Made by a program: the position numbers and the translations under genes
The notes under the pieces: generated by a model
Told to the model about the DNA's origin: nothing
The model's database searches: none
Seen by the model: the letters and a program-made list of their open reading frames with translations, nothing else
From: Candidatus Jorgensenbacteria bacterium
GTDB taxonomy: Bacteria; Patescibacteriota; Minisyncoccia; UBA6257; GWB1-50-10
Assembly (NCBI GenBank): GCA_043797305.1
Contig: JAZDPW010000034.1
Location: forward strand, 1-52,700
Length of the DNA stretch: 52,700 nucleotides
Reading direction: 5' to 3'
Part shown: positions 19,361 to 49,837 of the stretch, piece by piece
Layout of the letters: each line of letters begins with the position of its first letter
Position numbering within the stretch: the first letter of the stretch is position 1

Positions 19361-20650
19361 TTATTCAACTCGTTTAATACTTGCTCCCAAATATTTCAAT
19401 CTTTCGTCAATTCTCTCGTAACCGCGGTCTATTTCCTCCACGCCCGAAATTTCGGATTCTCCTTCGGCAATCAAAGCCGCCGTAAGATGAGCCATCCCCG
19501 CTCTCAAGTCCGGCACCTCAAGACGGGCTCCCCGAAGAGGCGTCGGTCCCTGAATTTCGGCTCGATGGGGAAACTTGCCGGCAAAACGGCAATTCGAACC
19601 AAGACAATCTTTTGTTACTTTAATATTTGCTCCCATCAAATTCAAGTCCTTGGTGTAACCTAAACGGTCTTCGTAAATCGTCTCGTGAATTTCCGAAAGG
19701 CCGTCAGCTTGAGTGAGAAGAATGGCAAGCGGCTGTTGCCAGTCGGTCATAAATCCGGGATGGGTATCGGTTTCGATTTTGGTTGACTTCAATTTGCCGG
19801 CCCGCCAAAACCTGATGCCGTCATCCCTGACTTCATAGTCGCCGCCAACCCGCCGGAGGGTATTTAAGAAAGTTATGAGGTGCTCTTGGATCGCGTCTTT
19901 TACGAAAATGTCGCCGTCGGTCGCGATGGCAAGAACGGCAAAAGAAACCGCCTCGTTCCGGTCGGGCATTATCCTGTGCTTCACCCCCCGCAAGTGGCTT
20001 ACGCCATCTATCCGGATTATCCGGTCGGCGCCGAGCTCGATGATTCCCCCCATTTTCTGCAAAAACTTGATTAAATCCATGATTTCCGGTTCAAGAGCCG
20101 CGTTTCTAATCACGGTTTTCCCCTTGGCCAAAACCGAGGCCAGAAGCGCGTTTTCGGTGGCACCAACCGAAGGAAAACGCAGGGTGATTTCCGAACCGTG
20201 CAGGCCGTTCGGAGCCGATGCCTTATAGGAATTTTCCGAAACGGTAATTTCGGCGCCGAGAAGTTTCAGTGCCTCAAGGTGAATGTCAACGGGCCGGGCG
20301 CCAATTTTGTCGCCGCCTACCACCGGCACTTCGGCCATCCCCTTGCGGGCAAGAAGCGGACCTAAAGCCAAAATAGGCAGCCGATTGCGGCGGGTAAGAG
20401 ACCGGACTTCGGTACTTTTAATGACCGGCGTTTTGATGGAAACGGTGTTGCCGTCTTTTAAAACTTCGCTGCCGAGTTCTTCGCAAAGACCGATGGTGAT
20501 TGCCGTATCGCCTATCAGCGGAAAGTTTTCCAAAATCGAGGTTTCGTCGGAAAGAATCGAAGCAACCAAAAGCTTGGTCGCGGCGTTCTTCGCGCCGGCG
20601 AGCTTTATCTCGCCCTTCAACGGTTGCTTGCCCCTGACAATAAAGTTCAC
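19361..20650 (-). CDS. murA: UDP-N-acetylglucosamine 1-carboxyvinyltransferase (Asp in place of the catalytic Cys)
   Basis: GAKNA, GGDKIGARPVDIH, SVGATEN, HPGFMTD, DLRAG, IDRGYE; GTG start formed by the MITE end. Confidence 0.96.
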   Translation of the reverse strand: MNFIVRGKQPLKGEIKLAGAKNAATKLLVASILSDETSILENFPLIGDTAITIGLCEELGSEVLKDGNTVSIKTPVIKSTEVRSLTRRNRLPILALGPLLARKGMAEVPVVGGDKIGARPVDIHLEALKLLGAEITVSENSYKASAPNGLHGSEITLRFPSVGATENALLASVLAKGKTVIRNAALEPEIMDLIKFLQKMGGIIELGADRIIRIDGVSHLRGVKHRIMPDRNEAVSFAVLAIATDGDIFVKDAIQEHLITFLNTLRRVGGDYEVRDDGIRFWRAGKLKSTKIETDTHPGFMTDWQQPLAILLTQADGLSEIHETIYEDRLGYTKDLNLMGANIKVTKDCLGSNCRFAGKFPHRAEIQGPTPLRGARLEVPDLRAGMAHLTAALIAEGESEISGVEEIDRGYERIDERLKYLGASIKRVE

Positions 20651-20781
20651 CCCGTTAGAAGTCTGTTTTTAATATTTGACCTTGTCATATTGGTGAATAT
20701 ATTAACTTGTTTGATTTTTTCCGTCAGCGCCGCGCATAAAAATTTCGTTGAAATTTTTAGTGCCTTGGACTTCTAACGGGG
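20650..20781. mobile_element. MITE-like element, 132 bp
   Basis: Perfect 14-bp TIR CCCCGTTAGAAGTC/GACTTCTAACGGGG; TTCA duplicated at 20646-20649 and 20782-20785; sister copy at 49709. Confidence 0.85.
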
Positions 20782-26337: not shown

Positions 26338-28008
26338 TCAATTGAGGATTATTTTCACCTTGTCGGGATTTGCCGGCACCTCTTGAACCCAAAAGGGCCA
26401 AAGAGAGATATTCGCCCGTTCCAGGCCGGAGAGAAAAAAGACGGTTTTCCTCAATTCTTCCTCGTTCTGCCCGGCAAATTCCCGTTTCAGTTCTTCAACG
26501 TCGAGATTCGGCTCAAAGACCACTTTGCCCTCAACCGGGAAAACCATCGAAGTTTTTTCGAAATCTATTCGCGGTTCGCCGTAACTCATCACAAACTCTT
26601 TTACCCTGGTATTGGAATCAACGGTCTTCACAGCGTCGGAAACAACGGCTTCTTCGAGCATTTTTTCCTCAAAAACGAGGTAACGAAGCTCCGCCTCGGC
26701 AAAAACGCGGAAACTGCCCGCTTCGCCCGCGGAGCGAGGCAAGTCCTCACTCCCGGCTGTTTCGATTTTTTCGTTCAAAACCTCAAACTCCCGGGCGTCG
26801 GGAAAAACCTTGAACTTGTCGGAGAGCAAAATAAGGACTTGAGCCTCGAGAACGCCTTCCAAATCCGAAAGCAGTTTTGCTTTTCCTTTACTGATGTCCT
26901 CTTCCGTCGGCACGGCCTCTTCTCCCACAAATCCGCCGCTCATCGCCTCTTCGGAATCGGCATAAAAACCTTCGTACCGCGGGTCGCCTTTAAACCCCGG
27001 AATCCGCCAGTGCTTTTCCGGTCCGATGTTGTAATCATTTCCGGCTTCGTCGGCCGTAACCCTGACATTGATTTTGAAAGGAACGATTTTTCCGTTTTCA
27101 ATCTTCGCGCCGGGAATGGTTACACGCTCGGCAAGACGGAAAATTTTCCCGCTCGGAGAAACAAACCGGGTCGTCGCAACGAGGACCTGAGATTCGGAGC
27201 TGTAAGCGTTGTAAACCGTAAGGATGCCTCCCGCTTTTCTTTCAACTTTTTCCCGGCCGGAAGCGGGAAAACTCAAGCTCAGATTCCCCTTCGCCTTCAG
27301 GAGCTCGGCGGGAAGAATCACTTCCGTTCCTTCGGCCGAAGCGACTTGGTGCTTACTCGTCGCCTCCACTTCGTAAGCGAAGGTGACTGGAACTTTTTTA
27401 AGAATCATCTCCACGGTTGCTTTGGGCAAAACGCGGTTCGCGACAAACATACCGCCCAAAACAACAAGAACCAAGAGAGCGAAAGAAAAGGTTCTTTTCA
27501 AAACCCGGTGCCTTTTGTTGTTTCGGAAAGCCTTTTTCGCCTCAACCGGCATAACTATTTTCTTCGGCTCAATGTATATTTCTTCGTTCCGCCCCAAAAA
27601 TTCTTTGGGGCGAGGCTCGCCTCCTCCGGAGGCGGCAACCCTTTCTTCTACTTCCTCTTCCTCCACTATCTTTTCCTCAACGCTTGCCGCCGGCATCTTT
27701 TTGAACACTGGCCTCGGTAAAATGTCGGAAATAATTCTTTCTCTTTGCCTGAAAACCGGGTTAAAAGCCTTGATTTTGGCAAGGGACGCGAGCTCGAGAA
27801 TCCTATCGTCAACCGATTCAACGTGGAGCTCCTTATCGGCCGTCGAACTCTCTCTTTTCAGAACGTGGAAATTACTGACCGACGAAGCCAAAACCGAATC
27901 GCGGGGAATGTTCAAAACAACGATATGGCTCCTGGCTTCAATGAGCCGATGGACGGCAACATCGAGATCTTCGTTTTTATCGAGAAAGAATTTCTTTTCT
28001 GTTTTCAT
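26338..28008 (-). CDS. Membrane-anchored CPR protein with baseplate J/gp47-like domain
   Basis: Single TM helix, then KAGG.L.VYN...L...TRF...G..F...V.IPG...V.A...G..YNI...IPG pattern; true start MKTEKK at 28008. Confidence 0.7.
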   Translation of the reverse strand: MKTEKKFFLDKNEDLDVAVHRLIEARSHIVVLNIPRDSVLASSVSNFHVLKRESSTADKELHVESVDDRILELASLAKIKAFNPVFRQRERIISDILPRPVFKKMPAASVEEKIVEEEEVEERVAASGGGEPRPKEFLGRNEEIYIEPKKIVMPVEAKKAFRNNKRHRVLKRTFSFALLVLVVLGGMFVANRVLPKATVEMILKKVPVTFAYEVEATSKHQVASAEGTEVILPAELLKAKGNLSLSFPASGREKVERKAGGILTVYNAYSSESQVLVATTRFVSPSGKIFRLAERVTIPGAKIENGKIVPFKINVRVTADEAGNDYNIGPEKHWRIPGFKGDPRYEGFYADSEEAMSGGFVGEEAVPTEEDISKGKAKLLSDLEGVLEAQVLILLSDKFKVFPDAREFEVLNEKIETAGSEDLPRSAGEAGSFRVFAEAELRYLVFEEKMLEEAVVSDAVKTVDSNTRVKEFVMSYGEPRIDFEKTSMVFPVEGKVVFEPNLDVEELKREFAGQNEEELRKTVFFLSGLERANISLWPFWVQEVPANPDKVKIILN

Positions 28009-28302
28009 CCCCCACATAATTTACACAGACAGAGAGTGACTCAATCTCTCTTTGAGTCGGCGCAGACCTTGTTTGTGCAATTTAAGCTGATGCTCTCGAC
28101 GAAAAGCATCTTGTTTTGAGGTATAACCCTCGAAATAGATAAGTTTCCAAGGTAGATACTTCTTGGTGTGGTAGGATTTTTCCTGATTATGTTCTTTCAC
28201 TCTCTTCTCCAGGTTAGAGGTACATCCTACATATAGGGTTTTGTTTTCCATTGATTGCAACATATATACGTAGAACATAATCAGTGTAAGTTATGTGGGG
28301 GA
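28008..28302. mobile_element. 295-bp TIR element carrying only a GIY-YIG nuclease gene
   Basis: TIR TCCCCCACATAATTTACAC / GTGTAAGTTATGTGGGGGA (18/19); TTCA duplicated at 28004-28007 and 28303-28306. Confidence 0.85.
28021..28278 (-). CDS. Stand-alone GIY-YIG nuclease
   Basis: FYVY...LYVGCT..L..R..EHN...T....PWKL.YFE......A..RE..LK; AT-richer than its neighbours. Confidence 0.93.
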   Translation of the reverse strand: MFYVYMLQSMENKTLYVGCTSNLEKRVKEHNQEKSYHTKKYLPWKLIYFEGYTSKQDAFRREHQLKLHKQGLRRLKERLSHSLSV

Positions 28303-28316
28303 TTCATGGCTTGTGA

Positions 28317-29456
28317 TTAGGGTTTTGCGGTGAGCCACCTCGCCCGGCGGGCAAGAAGGTCGTTCAAAAATCCGTACTGGGGCGGGAAATAAACGTGAGT
28401 GACAAAAGCGAGAACGTTGTCAGTGTTCAAAAACGGCGCGCTTTCCCGATTTATTATAACACCATAACCCTGCCCCGTAAGCAAATCCCTGAAATTGATG
28501 AGCCTAATCCGGGACCCAAAGAATCTGCCAAGAAACCTGGACGGTAGGTTCAGGCTAAGACACGGGCCGGCTTGCCGACTCCGCTCCCTTGATTTGGGAA
28601 GAAGCTTCAACAAATCCTCGATTTCTTCCTTAATCATTCCTTCTATCGCTTTCTTAATCTTGCCGGCGGGAGGTTCTTTGTCGAAAGAGAGGAGAATTTC
28701 GAGGGCGGTATCGGCGGAAACACCGAAAAAGGCGGCTATTTTCCTCAAAATCAAGCCGCTCCCCCACGGCAGGGCCTTGAAATGAATCCAATCCTCTTCA
28801 CCGTTTGCGAAAACGTGAGTAACTTTGTCGCCGACAAAGGCAAAATAATCGGAGGGCGAGGGAATCGAGAGCCCGAGAACCGCGCCGCCTTCAACGAGAA
28901 TTTTTTCCCGCCCCCAATTTTCCATTTTTTCGATGAGCGCTTTCTGGTTCCGATGGATGAAAGTCCCCCGGTAGCGAAAACAAAGATTCGCGCCTTTAAA
29001 GCCCTGCGGATTGAAAACCCGGTAAGAGCCCAAGGAAACTTCTCTTATTTCGGCGTCGGCGAGAATCAAATCCATGTCACCACACCCTAGTTTTTTCGAA
29101 ACCGTGCTCCGGTAACGACTCAAAAATTCCCAAAGACCCCGAAAAACGAGACTATCGATCTCGGTTTCGTTTATCGGCTCGTCCGGCTCGTTCCTTTTGA
29201 GATGAATCACGCTCTCGACCGTAACGGCTTTTTCCGAACCGACGGCCAAAATCACCTTGTCGACCGGGAAAAGAGGTTTTTTGATTTCTTCAAAGTTTTT
29301 TACGAAGTCGGTGCCGTAAACTTTTATTTTTTTATCCTTGCTTCTGATTTTCGCCCTGGTCACGCCAAAACCGGAGACAAGCTCCTCGACAACCAAAAAA
29401 GACTCCTGCTCGCTTTTTGGCAGTTTCTTCAACTTATCGAAAAGCTCGCCAATCAC
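28317..29456 (-). CDS. Degenerate FtsA/actin-like-fold protein (CPR type)
   Basis: R..P...I...E, I.EV.L..Y.V.NP.GF.G, LPWGS..I...IA..FGVS...A..I patterns; no clear ATP-binding loops. Confidence 0.55.
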   Translation of the reverse strand: MIGELFDKLKKLPKSEQESFLVVEELVSGFGVTRAKIRSKDKKIKVYGTDFVKNFEEIKKPLFPVDKVILAVGSEKAVTVESVIHLKRNEPDEPINETEIDSLVFRGLWEFLSRYRSTVSKKLGCGDMDLILADAEIREVSLGSYRVFNPQGFKGANLCFRYRGTFIHRNQKALIEKMENWGREKILVEGGAVLGLSIPSPSDYFAFVGDKVTHVFANGEEDWIHFKALPWGSGLILRKIAAFFGVSADTALEILLSFDKEPPAGKIKKAIEGMIKEEIEDLLKLLPKSRERSRQAGPCLSLNLPSRFLGRFFGSRIRLINFRDLLTGQGYGVIINRESAPFLNTDNVLAFVTHVYFPPQYGFLNDLLARRARWLTAKP

Positions 29457-44437: not shown

Positions 44438-44465
44438 CCCCCCACATAAGTATTTATGTGGGGGG
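44438..44465. mobile_element. 28-bp empty derivative of the GIY-YIG element
   Basis: CCCCCCACATAA-GTAT-TTATGTGGGGGG flanked by TCAA / TTAA; arms match the 28008 TIR core CCCCCACATAA. Confidence 0.7.
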
Positions 44466-49708: not shown

Positions 49709-49837
49709 CCCCGTTAGAAGTCTGTATATCTGGGGATAAATTCAGCTAATAAAAAGGACATTTTATTGCTCATTCTTCTCATTATCACAGAGCAAAAAAT
49801 TTCGCCCGAAATTTTTTGCCGAGGACTTCTAACGGGG
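49709..49837. mobile_element. MITE-like element, 129 bp
   Basis: 14-bp TIR CCCCGTTAGAAGTC/GACTTCTAACGGGG; TCAA duplicated at 49705-49708 and 49838-49841; subterminal AAAAATTTC..GAAATTTTT hairpin as in the 20650 copy. Confidence 0.85.

Follow-up and report, generated by a model that had tools for sequence, protein, structure and literature searches.

The 52,700-nt stretch of DNA analysed here (the window; positions 1 to 52,700 of contig JAZDPW010000034.1 in assembly GCA_043797305.1, from a Candidatus Jorgensenbacteria bacterium) carries a 295-bp element (28008-28302, minus strand) that consists of a terminal inverted repeat (TIR), a single open reading frame (ORF) for a GIY-YIG nuclease, and a second TIR, and that is inserted in the start codon of a 556-aa host gene, which it rebuilds. 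On balance, and with real reservations set out below, we favour the interpretation that this element represents a new class of minimal autonomous transposon in which the nuclease is the mobilising enzyme. As judged from the sequences compared, the family comprises elements of ~280-320 bp with TIRs of 14-25 bp that start with (A/T)CCC..CAC.. and with a single gene for an 85-94-aa GIY-YIG protein of the UPF0213/Slx1 type. To our knowledge, an autonomous element of less than 300 bp is far below any insertion sequence (IS) in size and would be the smallest known.

Structure of the element and its insertion site

Coordinates are given for the window on the plus strand, with the minus strand as the gene strand (Table 1). 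The two 19-bp TIR arms, TCCCCCACATAATTTACAC and its inverted copy, differ by one mismatch; the 19-mer matches the window twice (with 0 and 1 mismatches) against 0.02 matches expected, and 0 of 100 shuffles reached a count of 2. A repeat search lengthens the arms to 23 nt with 91% complementarity (28007-28029 and 28281-28303). The TAA stop codon of the nuclease (28021-28023) lies within the downstream arm. On both sides the element is flanked by TTCA on the plus strand, i.e., TGAA on the gene strand, and the minus strand reads gccATGAA/TCCCCC at the upstream junction and GGGGGA/TGAAAACAG at the downstream junction, the whole region being gccATGAA / TCCCCCACATAACTTACAC ... GTGTAAATTATGTGGGGGA / TGAAAACAGAA. 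The terminal A of the element (28008) and the duplicated TG (28007-28006) therefore remake the ATG of the 556-aa gene, and because the start is rebuilt from a terminal purine and the duplicated TG, the host protein is unchanged; its N-terminus, MKTEKKFFLDKNEDL, is identical to that of the uninterrupted ortholog in a genome of the same genus (G002). Orthologs of the host gene are present in 41 of the 41 genomes searched. A preliminary description of the window, made from the sequence alone, had proposed an 85-aa GIY-YIG ORF between 19-bp inverted repeats with its stop codon inside one repeat, all of which is present in the sequence, as well as a TTCA duplication with a rebuilt ATG and an unchanged host protein, which the junctions and the G002 ortholog confirm. 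The same description offered a second way of reading the junction, with A...T termini and a 2-bp duplication linked to 2-nt overhangs; this has to be given up, as members of the family at C14:4440, C25:7192 and in G001 (contig C6) carry TGAG on both sides and fit only a 4-bp duplication. An Rfam scan of window positions 27800-28500, at E up to 1, gave no match and hence no group I or group II intron ribozyme core.

Empty sites and mobility of the family

The predicted empty site, gccATGAAAACAGAA, was found in nature. A contig of 7403 nt (depth 17.7) from a groundwater metagenome, run X1, joins 28003 to 28303 and skips exactly 299 nt, i.e., the 295-bp element plus one 4-bp TGAA, while in the same-genus genomes G002 and G003 ...ATGAAAAC... 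stands directly 3' of the upstream gene with no insert and a single copy of the duplication; empty sites with a single TTCA, which the preliminary description had proposed looking for in relatives, are thus on record in G002, G003 and the X1 contig. The window element was absent from the orthologous loci of all eight relatives examined, and contigs of two other runs (X2 and X3) covered almost none of the stretch. A second X1 contig (420 nt) holds an element end (62 nt, 6 differences) beside a different flank, which weakly suggests a copy of the element elsewhere. At the same junction, G001 (locus L013) has an ORF-less TIR element of ~110 bp with TIR ACCCCGTTAGAT, and G008 (locus L016) has an ORF-less element of ~150 bp with TIR TCCCTCACCCTTCAAAGAT and a rebuilt ATG; these elements are unrelated to the window element, and the junction has therefore been hit repeatedly.

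The genome to which the window belongs (G000; 669 kb in 35 contigs, 97% complete) has eight GIY-YIG paralogs. Two of them, on contigs C6 and C7, encode 94-aa proteins ~45% identical to the window protein and lie in 282-bp elements with perfect 16-bp TIRs (ACCCCGTTAGAAGTCA), both inserted in ATGAA start codons with a GTG rebuilt for the host gene; a further paralog (C20) has a 13-bp TIR. [quoted passage not shown] These 29 were kept, as having a TIR at both ends, from 41 pairs in a loose paired-end scan of G000, the 12 dropped pairs being ten chance pairs of the 2-mismatch 10-mer and two duplicate pairings of right ends already kept; two of the 29 (C14:4440 and C25:7192) have nearly identical flanks and may represent one locus assembled twice. 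In 24 of the 29, the element rebuilds an ATG or GTG at the head of an ORF of 73 codons or more, and 23 of these 24 retain the host ATG or GTG at the other junction too. Beyond the TIRs, the MITEs share few k-mers with the nuclease elements. One MITE with the TIR of the window element itself (120 bp, at C26:6451) is also inserted in ATGAA.

Members of the CCCGTTAGA family likewise differ in position among sister genomes. At three MITE sites of contig C17, G002 has a precise empty site (with one copy of TTCA, TTCA, and TCCA, respectively), and one of the three is empty in G001 and G003 too; the site of the C7 nuclease element is exactly empty in G002. Nuclease elements of the C6/C7 type occur at a different locus in G001 (92% nucleotide identity; duplication TGAG, host ATG, rebuilt GTG) and at a different locus in G003 (81% nucleotide identity; duplication TTTA), where the copy lies three codons into the host ORF and creates an in-frame fusion. 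MITEs with the exact TIR number 21 in G000 versus 1, 0, and 4 in three congeners, the youngest MITE copies are up to 98% identical, and genome G022 has two copies of the nuclease element at two loci, with identical first 80 nt. Precise empty sites and copies at non-homologous sites together indicate that the family is mobile. We give almost no credence to the alternative that the structure is not mobile and reflects either a palindrome that arose by chance around a resident gene for a repair nuclease or an error of assembly: the genomes were assembled from metagenomes, and prokaryotic Slx1-like proteins are read as vertically inherited repair enzymes in the accessible part of PMC1564403, but the TIR is significant, precise empty sites come from three independent sources, and the same architecture recurs at dozens of loci in dozens of genomes. 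As a separate observation, G002 has a GIY-YIG gene (G002:C7:4503-4748) where the G000 alignment lacks ~260 bp, and the scan gave no TIR around it.

Table 1. Features of the window that belong to, or are related to, the GIY-YIG element (window coordinates, plus strand).
Feature	Coordinates	Strand	Remarks
MITE, 132 bp, ORF-less, CCCGTTAGAAGTC-TIR family	20650..20781	-	In ATGAA of a 429-codon ORF; duplication TGAA; GTG rebuilt
Host gene, 556 aa	26338..28008	-	GlxA beta-barrel domain; start codon rebuilt
Target-site duplication, downstream copy TGAA	28004..28007	-	Its TG completes the rebuilt ATG (28006-28008)
Downstream TIR arm	28008..28026	-	TCCCCCACATAATTTACAC on the plus strand; holds the nuclease TAA stop; its final base, 28008, supplies the A of the rebuilt ATG
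GIY-YIG nuclease ORF, 85 aa	28021..28278	-	Span includes stop; UPF0213/Slx1-like clade; Pfam PF01541
Perfect 13-bp internal inverted repeat, arm 1	28183..28195	.	Partner at 28272-28284 spans the nuclease start codon
Leader mini-ORF, 8 codons (MNPPHNLH, then stop)	28281..28307	-	Opened by the original host ATG
Upstream TIR arm, gene orientation	28284..28302	-	TCCCCCACATAACTTACAC; original host ATG reads into the arm; 1 mismatch to the other arm
Target-site duplication, upstream copy TGAA	28303..28306	-	Its TG is part of the original host ATG (28305-28307)
Palindrome, 28 nt, TIR of the window element alone	44438..44465	.	CCCCCCACATAAG..CTTATGTGGGGGG; flanked by TCAA / TTAA
MITE, 129 bp, same CCCGTTAGAAGTC-TIR	49709..49837	+	Duplication TCAA; not at a start codon by the test used

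Several smaller features accompany the family in G000. In addition to the palindrome in the window, TIR-only palindromes (CCCCCACATAA...TTATGTGGGGG, with flanking TCAA-like repeats) occur at C24:7923-7950, C25:29389-29416, and C35:8539-8575, four in all with lengths of 26-37 nt, and these may be either fully deleted remnants or minimal mobile hairpins like those of repetitive extragenic palindromic (REP) sequences. The MITEs have a conserved subterminal hairpin of ~29 nt (GCATAAAAATTCC..GGAATTTTTATGC) near the upstream end (e.g., L115:1135-1163, which is C18:4634-4662), the pairing of which is preserved in variant copies, and the C6 and C7 nuclease elements have an internal inverted repeat of 15-18 bp with a similar AAAATTC core; the subterminal hairpin might mark the two element ends as different. 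Two contigs (C1:1-122 and C26:25300-25377) terminate within MITE copies. Assembly is probably interrupted by the repeat family, and the MITE copy number is therefore a lower bound.

Distribution of TIR-bounded GIY-YIG genes in other genomes

A homolog scan with one genome per species yielded 342 relatives, from which the best 80 loci were kept. TIRs with a score of at least 12 closely bracket the ORF at 49 of the 80 loci, compared with 1 of 287 displaced controls (p=2e-38), and TIRs with a score of at least 10 were found at 56 of the 80 loci and 7 of the 287 controls. The preliminary description had suggested that small GIY-YIG homologs be inspected for TIRs and duplications, and it is these 49 loci, versus one control, that carry TIRs of the CCCC.CAC type, with 4-bp duplications that begin with T. 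Across phyla, elements measure 279-322 bp, and their TIRs begin with (A/T)CCC..CAC.. and vary from clade to clade, the two arms of any one element remaining complementary; among 52 elements, an element's own arms match at 14.9 of 16 positions versus 7.1 of 16 with the arms of other elements. This complementarity was considered as proof of a hairpin function and set aside as non-discriminating, in that any transposase that binds both ends predicts the same. Most TIR-positive loci are from Patescibacteria, with others from metagenome-assembled genomes (MAGs) of Balneolaceae, Bdellovibrionales, Omnitrophota, Nitrospira, and Stahlbacteria. Viral contigs yielded only 1 relative, so the family is not chiefly a phage element. 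Elements of nuclease length with the CCCGTTAGA TIR were found in 10 of 41 relative genomes.

Start codons recur as insertion sites throughout this wider set. At 22 of the 56 TIR-positive loci, the downstream junction has a start codon, co-oriented with the nuclease, for an ORF of 60 codons or more, whereas the same test gave 1 of 56 for mirrored controls and 115 of 1348 for random positions. The nine copies most closely related to that of the window, which have the same TIR and 59-71% identity, all rebuild an ATG (9/9), each time of a different gene. Of the nuclease-length elements with the CCCGTTAGA TIR, 9 loci outside G000 were examined, and 6 of these rebuild an ATG or GTG for an ORF of 126 codons or more. 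A subfamily with the TIR CC.GGTAGTG duplicates (T)ATG itself; thus two lineages with different cut registers converge on start codons. Two further observations concern individual genomes. Loci L044, L057, and L099 have the TIR ACCCC(G/T)CAC.. with (G)TTGA(C) on both sides and may target TTG starts or TTGAC-like motifs, with no long downstream ORF at these three loci by the start-codon test. Genome G006 (700 kb) contains 13 matches to the GIY-YIG protein, some of them with internal stops.

Properties of the nuclease

The window protein matches the Pfam GIY-YIG family (PF01541) with E=1.9e-17 and 63.7 bits (cut-off 22.6). Residues Y5, Y16, G18, R26, H30, and E62 are invariant in the family alignment (A1), and we take the tyrosines, the arginine, the histidine, and the glutamate among them to be the catalytic residues. 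Searching the profile against the PDB retrieved 1zg2 (UPF0213 protein BH0048; 1.1e-11), 1ywl (EF2693; 3.4e-7), and SLX1 structures (5e-5 to 2e-3). An AlphaFold model (mean predicted local distance difference test score of 81), compared by Foldseek, placed UPF0213 proteins, Slx1 or Slx1-Slx4, and At-HIGLE at ranks 1-11, I-TevI at rank 14, and UvrC at rank 20. By sequence and by predicted fold, the protein is closest to the UPF0213 and Slx1 structure-specific nucleases. A single fold of the GIY-YIG type was found and no other Pfam domain type, with the T5orf172 and MUG113 matches overlapping the same stretch. NCBIfam gave matches below threshold only, weak ones among them to the group I intron endonuclease family, and the 105 close clusters carry no annotation beyond 'GIY-YIG nuclease family protein' or 'putative endonuclease'. 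Comparison of copies at different loci gives a ratio of nonsynonymous to synonymous substitution rates (dN/dS) of 0.075-0.113, i.e., the gene is under purifying selection. In a profile search of 1.84 billion representatives (50% identity clusters), 24,362 were retrieved with an E-value limit of 1e-3 and 5,103 with one of 1e-10.

Target choice and orientation

The duplication is 4 bp long and always begins with T; it is mostly TGAA, followed by TGGA, TGAG, TCAA, and TTTA, each on both sides of the element, and in two copies the duplicates are unlike, with TGAA upstream and TGAG downstream. Sequence information at 31 reconstructed sites is confined to A-T-G-A-A, and copies are found in ~30 unrelated host genes that have only ATGAA in common. 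When the G000 genome was 'emptied' of its elements, crude ORF calls placed 6312 oriented TGAA sites within ORFs, 724 in intergenic regions, and 273 at candidate starts; 21 of 22 TGAA insertions are at starts (p=2.5e-11), compared with an expectation of 27% on the assumption that insertions are tolerated in intergenic regions and at starts only; to the extent that intergenic insertions are harmful too, this comparison overstates start targeting. With the seed copy excluded, all MITEs that can be oriented (18 of 18) run in the direction of the host gene (p=8e-6). An outward MITE promoter as the cause of this fixed orientation was rejected, as no co-oriented sigma-70-like site was found in the MITE or in the window element.

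A different kind of target is represented by four of the 80 loci, in unrelated MAGs (one Balneolaceae and three Patescibacteria) at which a TIR-bounded GIY-YIG element lies directly before AGGAAAGTCCG in RNase P RNA (L040:1170-1473, L085:1165-1466, L067:1184-1475, and L082:1184-1480). Only L040 and L085 reach the Rfam gathering score for class A RNase P. At all four loci, 8-11 nt of the left flank are complementary to a segment ~250-335 nt downstream, as for helix P1, according to a scripted search of the left flank against the segment 250-420 nt downstream; this P1-like pairing, the basis of the assignment for all four, places the element within rnpB. Judging by the RNase P fold, the insertion position is presumably where helix P3 belongs, and the TIR stem would then stand in for P3. 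Three G000 paralogs (C24:50700-50900, L004; C23:16218-16412, L006; C12:10520-10720, L008) adjoin tRNA genes, and on the far side of their ORFs is a direct repeat of 12-13 nt of the tRNA 3' end (C24 and C23) or 5' end (C12); judging by these repeats, they look as if they had integrated into the end of a tRNA gene and restored it.

The target data bear most directly on the possibility that the element is a free-standing homing-endonuclease gene whose product would cleave unoccupied alleles or short motifs and which was copied in by break repair, through homology or microhomology at TGAA, with repeats that serve the RNA (e.g., in stability, RNase III processing, or start-codon presentation). We consider this improbable. 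GIY-YIG is the classical homing-endonuclease fold, and the weak matches to the group I intron endonuclease family point the same way, as do the two copies with mixed TGAA/TGAG duplicates and the fixed orientation to an asymmetric TGAA, which fits templated copying; the rnpB lineage, with the same position in four unrelated genomes and no duplication, is the most homing-like, and GIY-YIG proteins occur in non-intron insertions of rRNA genes of the Candidate Phyla Radiation (CPR), according to the accessible text of PMC11270868. However, the ~30 host genes share only ATGAA, so that there is no flanking homology to copy from, and the duplicates co-vary with the target (TGGA/TGGA, TGAG/TGAG, TCAA/TCAA, TTTA/TTTA), as in duplication by a staggered cut. 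In addition, ORF-less MITEs multiply, the same element is found at different loci in G000, G001, and G003, and the protein is closer to Slx1 than to I-TevI and is without the DNA-binding domains of known homing enzymes.

Expression layout and translation of the host gene

Scans of the window element gave no co-oriented promoter-like site, no terminator, and no ribosome-binding site of its own. The original host ATG is the nuclease start in C6, C7, L031, L044, L056, and L107, where the protein begins with MNPVRS... or MSPTHNLH...; alternatively, the host ATG opens a leader of 4-9 codons that ends at or next to the nuclease ATG, as in the window, L032, L034, L037, L045, and others. In the window, the TGA of the leader mini-ORF is 2 nt before the nuclease ATG (TGATTATG). 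The stop codon of the nuclease is located in the far TIR and precedes the rebuilt start by 5-14 nt. Such an arrangement is consistent with translation of the nuclease from the host initiation region followed by reinitiation at the host gene, and read-through coupling is plausible for nuclease-bearing copies, in which host-gene translation would continue by termination-reinitiation. When the RNA is folded in silico, a TIR stem encloses the entire insert (window element, z = -6.4; a MITE, z = -6.0), and such a stem would bring the leader upstream of the host gene, with its signals, next to the rebuilt AUG, which offers another way in which host translation may continue. The internal 13-bp pair appears in the minimum-free-energy fold of the RNA and may mask the nuclease start. 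At the downstream ends of the CCCGTTAGA MITEs (..GACTTCTAACGGGATGAA), one frame has a TAA 5 nt before the rebuilt start, a second has a TGA that overlaps the rebuilt start as ATGA, and the third runs in frame into the host ORF.

What moves the element

In the mechanism that we propose, the nuclease would make paired nicks 4 nt apart at the boundaries between TIR and flank, and like 4-nt staggered cuts at A^TGAA targets; the TIRs would perhaps be recognised in hairpin or branched form, much as branched DNA is recognised by Slx1, and the same nuclease would mobilise MITEs that bear its TIR. We know of no strand-transfer activity in GIY-YIG enzymes; end joining would therefore be left to the host, whose ligase or repair enzymes would join the ends. 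A cognate nuclease element was found in 5 of 7 genomes with MITEs versus 5 of 34 others (Fisher p=0.0055, for related genomes that are not independent). The preliminary description had named, as the finding that would reduce the nuclease to cargo, a DDE transposase flanked by the same TIRs; no such arrangement appeared, as G000 has no DDE match and no larger TIR-bounded unit. Specifically, rve, DDE_Tnp_1, DDE_3, and Y1_Tnp had no match in G000, in a search that did not include serine and tyrosine recombinase families, and a long-range pair scan found no larger TIR-bounded unit with cargo for the abundant CCCGTTAGA-family TIR.

Under a competing explanation, the TIR elements and MITEs do move, but the GIY-YIG gene is carried along as a passenger, perhaps a selfish or useful nuclease within the loop, with movement due to an unrecognised host or trans-acting enzyme, or to replication or repair acting on the hairpins. 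We judge this unlikely, though it accounts for several observations: MITEs and nuclease elements have only their TIRs in common, TIR-only palindromes exist, the MITEs of G006 and G036 occur without an exact cognate nuclease element, the protein has nothing beyond a catalytic domain (85-94 aa), and the transposase search covered four Pfam families only. What speaks against a passenger is that across phyla the unit is always TIR, GIY-YIG gene, and TIR and nothing else, at 279-322 bp; that each protein clade has its own TIR; that the ORF is under strong purifying selection while changing loci; and that a 97%-complete genome of 669 kb with a recent burst of MITEs has no DDE or HUH match.

A number of observations nevertheless weigh against the nuclease as the mobilising enzyme. 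The protein consists of a catalytic domain alone (85-94 aa), with no separate DNA-binding domain. Known GIY-YIG enzymes are hydrolytic and leave 3' overhangs of 1-2 nt, and the lack of a known strand transfer mentioned above belongs here as well. G006 and G036 have MITEs with the CCCGTTAGA TIR but only near-cognate nuclease elements. A pure cohesive-end cut-and-ligate mechanism predicts that the duplication is inherited with the element; C8:1150 and C17:44610, which are 98% identical, do share TGGA, but C19 (TGGA) is nearest to C18 (TGAA; 92% identity) and the two TCAA copies are not nearest neighbours, so that this prediction is unsupported. The fixed orientation is not accounted for by symmetric TIRs alone. 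Five of the 29 G000 members are off usable start codons (TCAA twice, TTTA once, and two unclear), and no target duplication was seen at the four RNase P insertions. In the TIR scan, 31 of the 80 homolog loci score below 12 and 24 of the 80 below 10, and no TIR was found at the loci from Gammaproteobacteria, from Bacteroidales, or labelled Bacteroidota except Balneolaceae L040. Many MITEs have an early stop (MNPVRSPRH, then stop) in the frame opened by the host ATG, which rules out read-through coupling or reinitiation as the general route for MITE-bearing genes. Finally, while mobility follows from comparison, the catalytic role that we infer for the nuclease is correlative.

A broader proposal, which we put forward tentatively as a possibility somewhat short of probable, is that stand-alone Slx1-like GIY-YIG nucleases form an unrecognised transposase superfamily that moves its elements and their MITEs by nuclease-only cut-and-rejoin with 4-nt staggered ends and is aimed at start codons, with sister lineages at RNase P RNA (P3), tRNA ends, and rRNA helices.

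Implications

The following implications are drawn from comparative evidence only. If the nuclease drives movement, it would constitute a new enzyme class beside DDE enzymes, HUH enzymes, serine and tyrosine recombinases, Cas1, and reverse transcriptase with endonuclease. The insertion mode would also be a new way for a parasite to be harmless yet expressed, through insertion in a start codon, borrowing of the host initiation signals, and return of an ATG or GTG; such harmlessness by start rebuilding matters most in the most gene-dense genomes known. If the interpretation is true, the very large family of 'hypothetical GIY-YIG nuclease' genes would have to be reinterpreted, including many of the thousands of small genes in the CPR and beyond, and odd insertions in CPR rRNA, RNase P, and tRNA genes would in part be explained. 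For annotation, it serves as a warning that many CPR gene starts are split by inserts of 130-300 bp. A tiny nuclease with a short defined target and directional insertion is also of possible practical interest as a tool.

Comparison with known systems

In a literature search with mostly open-access coverage, which leaves a prior description possible, we found no prokaryotic TIR element or MITE tied to a GIY-YIG protein and no start-codon MITE, and exact phrases such as 'GIY-YIG transposase' returned 0 papers. In the accessible text of a 2024 review of prokaryotic MITEs (PMC10969869), 'start codon' and 'endonuclease' never occur.

The closest proteins are the Slx1-like/UPF0213 proteins (1zg2, 1ywl) and eukaryotic Slx1, which share the minimal GIY-YIG domain of ~90 aa without auxiliary domains. 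Stand-alone Slx1-like GIY-YIG proteins have been interpreted as cellular repair enzymes with mostly vertical descent, and selfish GIY-YIG enzymes as derived from another, UvrC-like lineage, as far as the accessible part of PMC1564403 goes; by contrast, the genes described here have TIRs and duplications, change loci between sister species, and have MITE satellites. GIY-YIG homing genes (I-TevI in group I introns and the free-standing Seg-type genes of T4-like phages) resemble the element in being compact insertions whose only protein is a GIY-YIG nuclease, and some members of the family resemble them further in occupying one conserved rnpB position. Unlike homing genes, however, the element has no intron or ribozyme in the window region and its protein has no DNA-binding domain, while it does have TIRs, 4-bp duplications, and non-autonomous derivatives and occupies tens of non-homologous sites.

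In overall organisation, the family is similar to IS elements with cognate MITEs (e.g., the IS630/Tc1-mariner type with its TA duplication, and the Correia elements of Neisseria), with which it shares TIRs, a duplication of fixed length, a target motif, autonomous and miniature partners with common TIRs, lineage-specific bursts, and TIR hairpins in mRNA; Correia TIRs are cleaved by RNase III, as stated in the accessible text of PMC10969869. It differs from these pairs in that its only gene is a GIY-YIG gene and in that insertion is directional, into an asymmetric target, with start codons hit and rebuilt. Elements of REP-associated tyrosine transposases (RAYTs) and their REP-derived hairpins (REPINs), as well as IS200/IS605, likewise combine a small nuclease gene with flanking inverted palindromic repeats, many dispersed non-autonomous copies, and orientation-specific insertion, and by analogy with them a hairpin substrate is plausible here. 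IS200/IS605 elements are not known to make a target duplication and RAYT genes are largely fixed, whereas the family described here has a true target duplication, nuclease elements that change loci, and no Y1/HUH match in G000.

The GIY-YIG insertions in CPR rRNA genes (PMC11270868) are from the same bacterial group and, according to the accessible text of that paper, are neither group I nor group II introns; they probably belong to the same element family with another kind of target, although in a comparison by description only, TIRs, duplications, MITEs, protein-gene targets, and start rebuilding are undescribed in that text. Penelope-like retroelements also use a GIY-YIG nuclease for chromosomal integration of a mobile element, but they are eukaryotic and have a reverse transcriptase, whereas the element described here is DNA-only, TIR-bounded, and without a reverse transcriptase. 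Each of the nearest known systems thus shares features with the element but fails a defining one, and on this comparison the element appears to be a new kind of transposable element.

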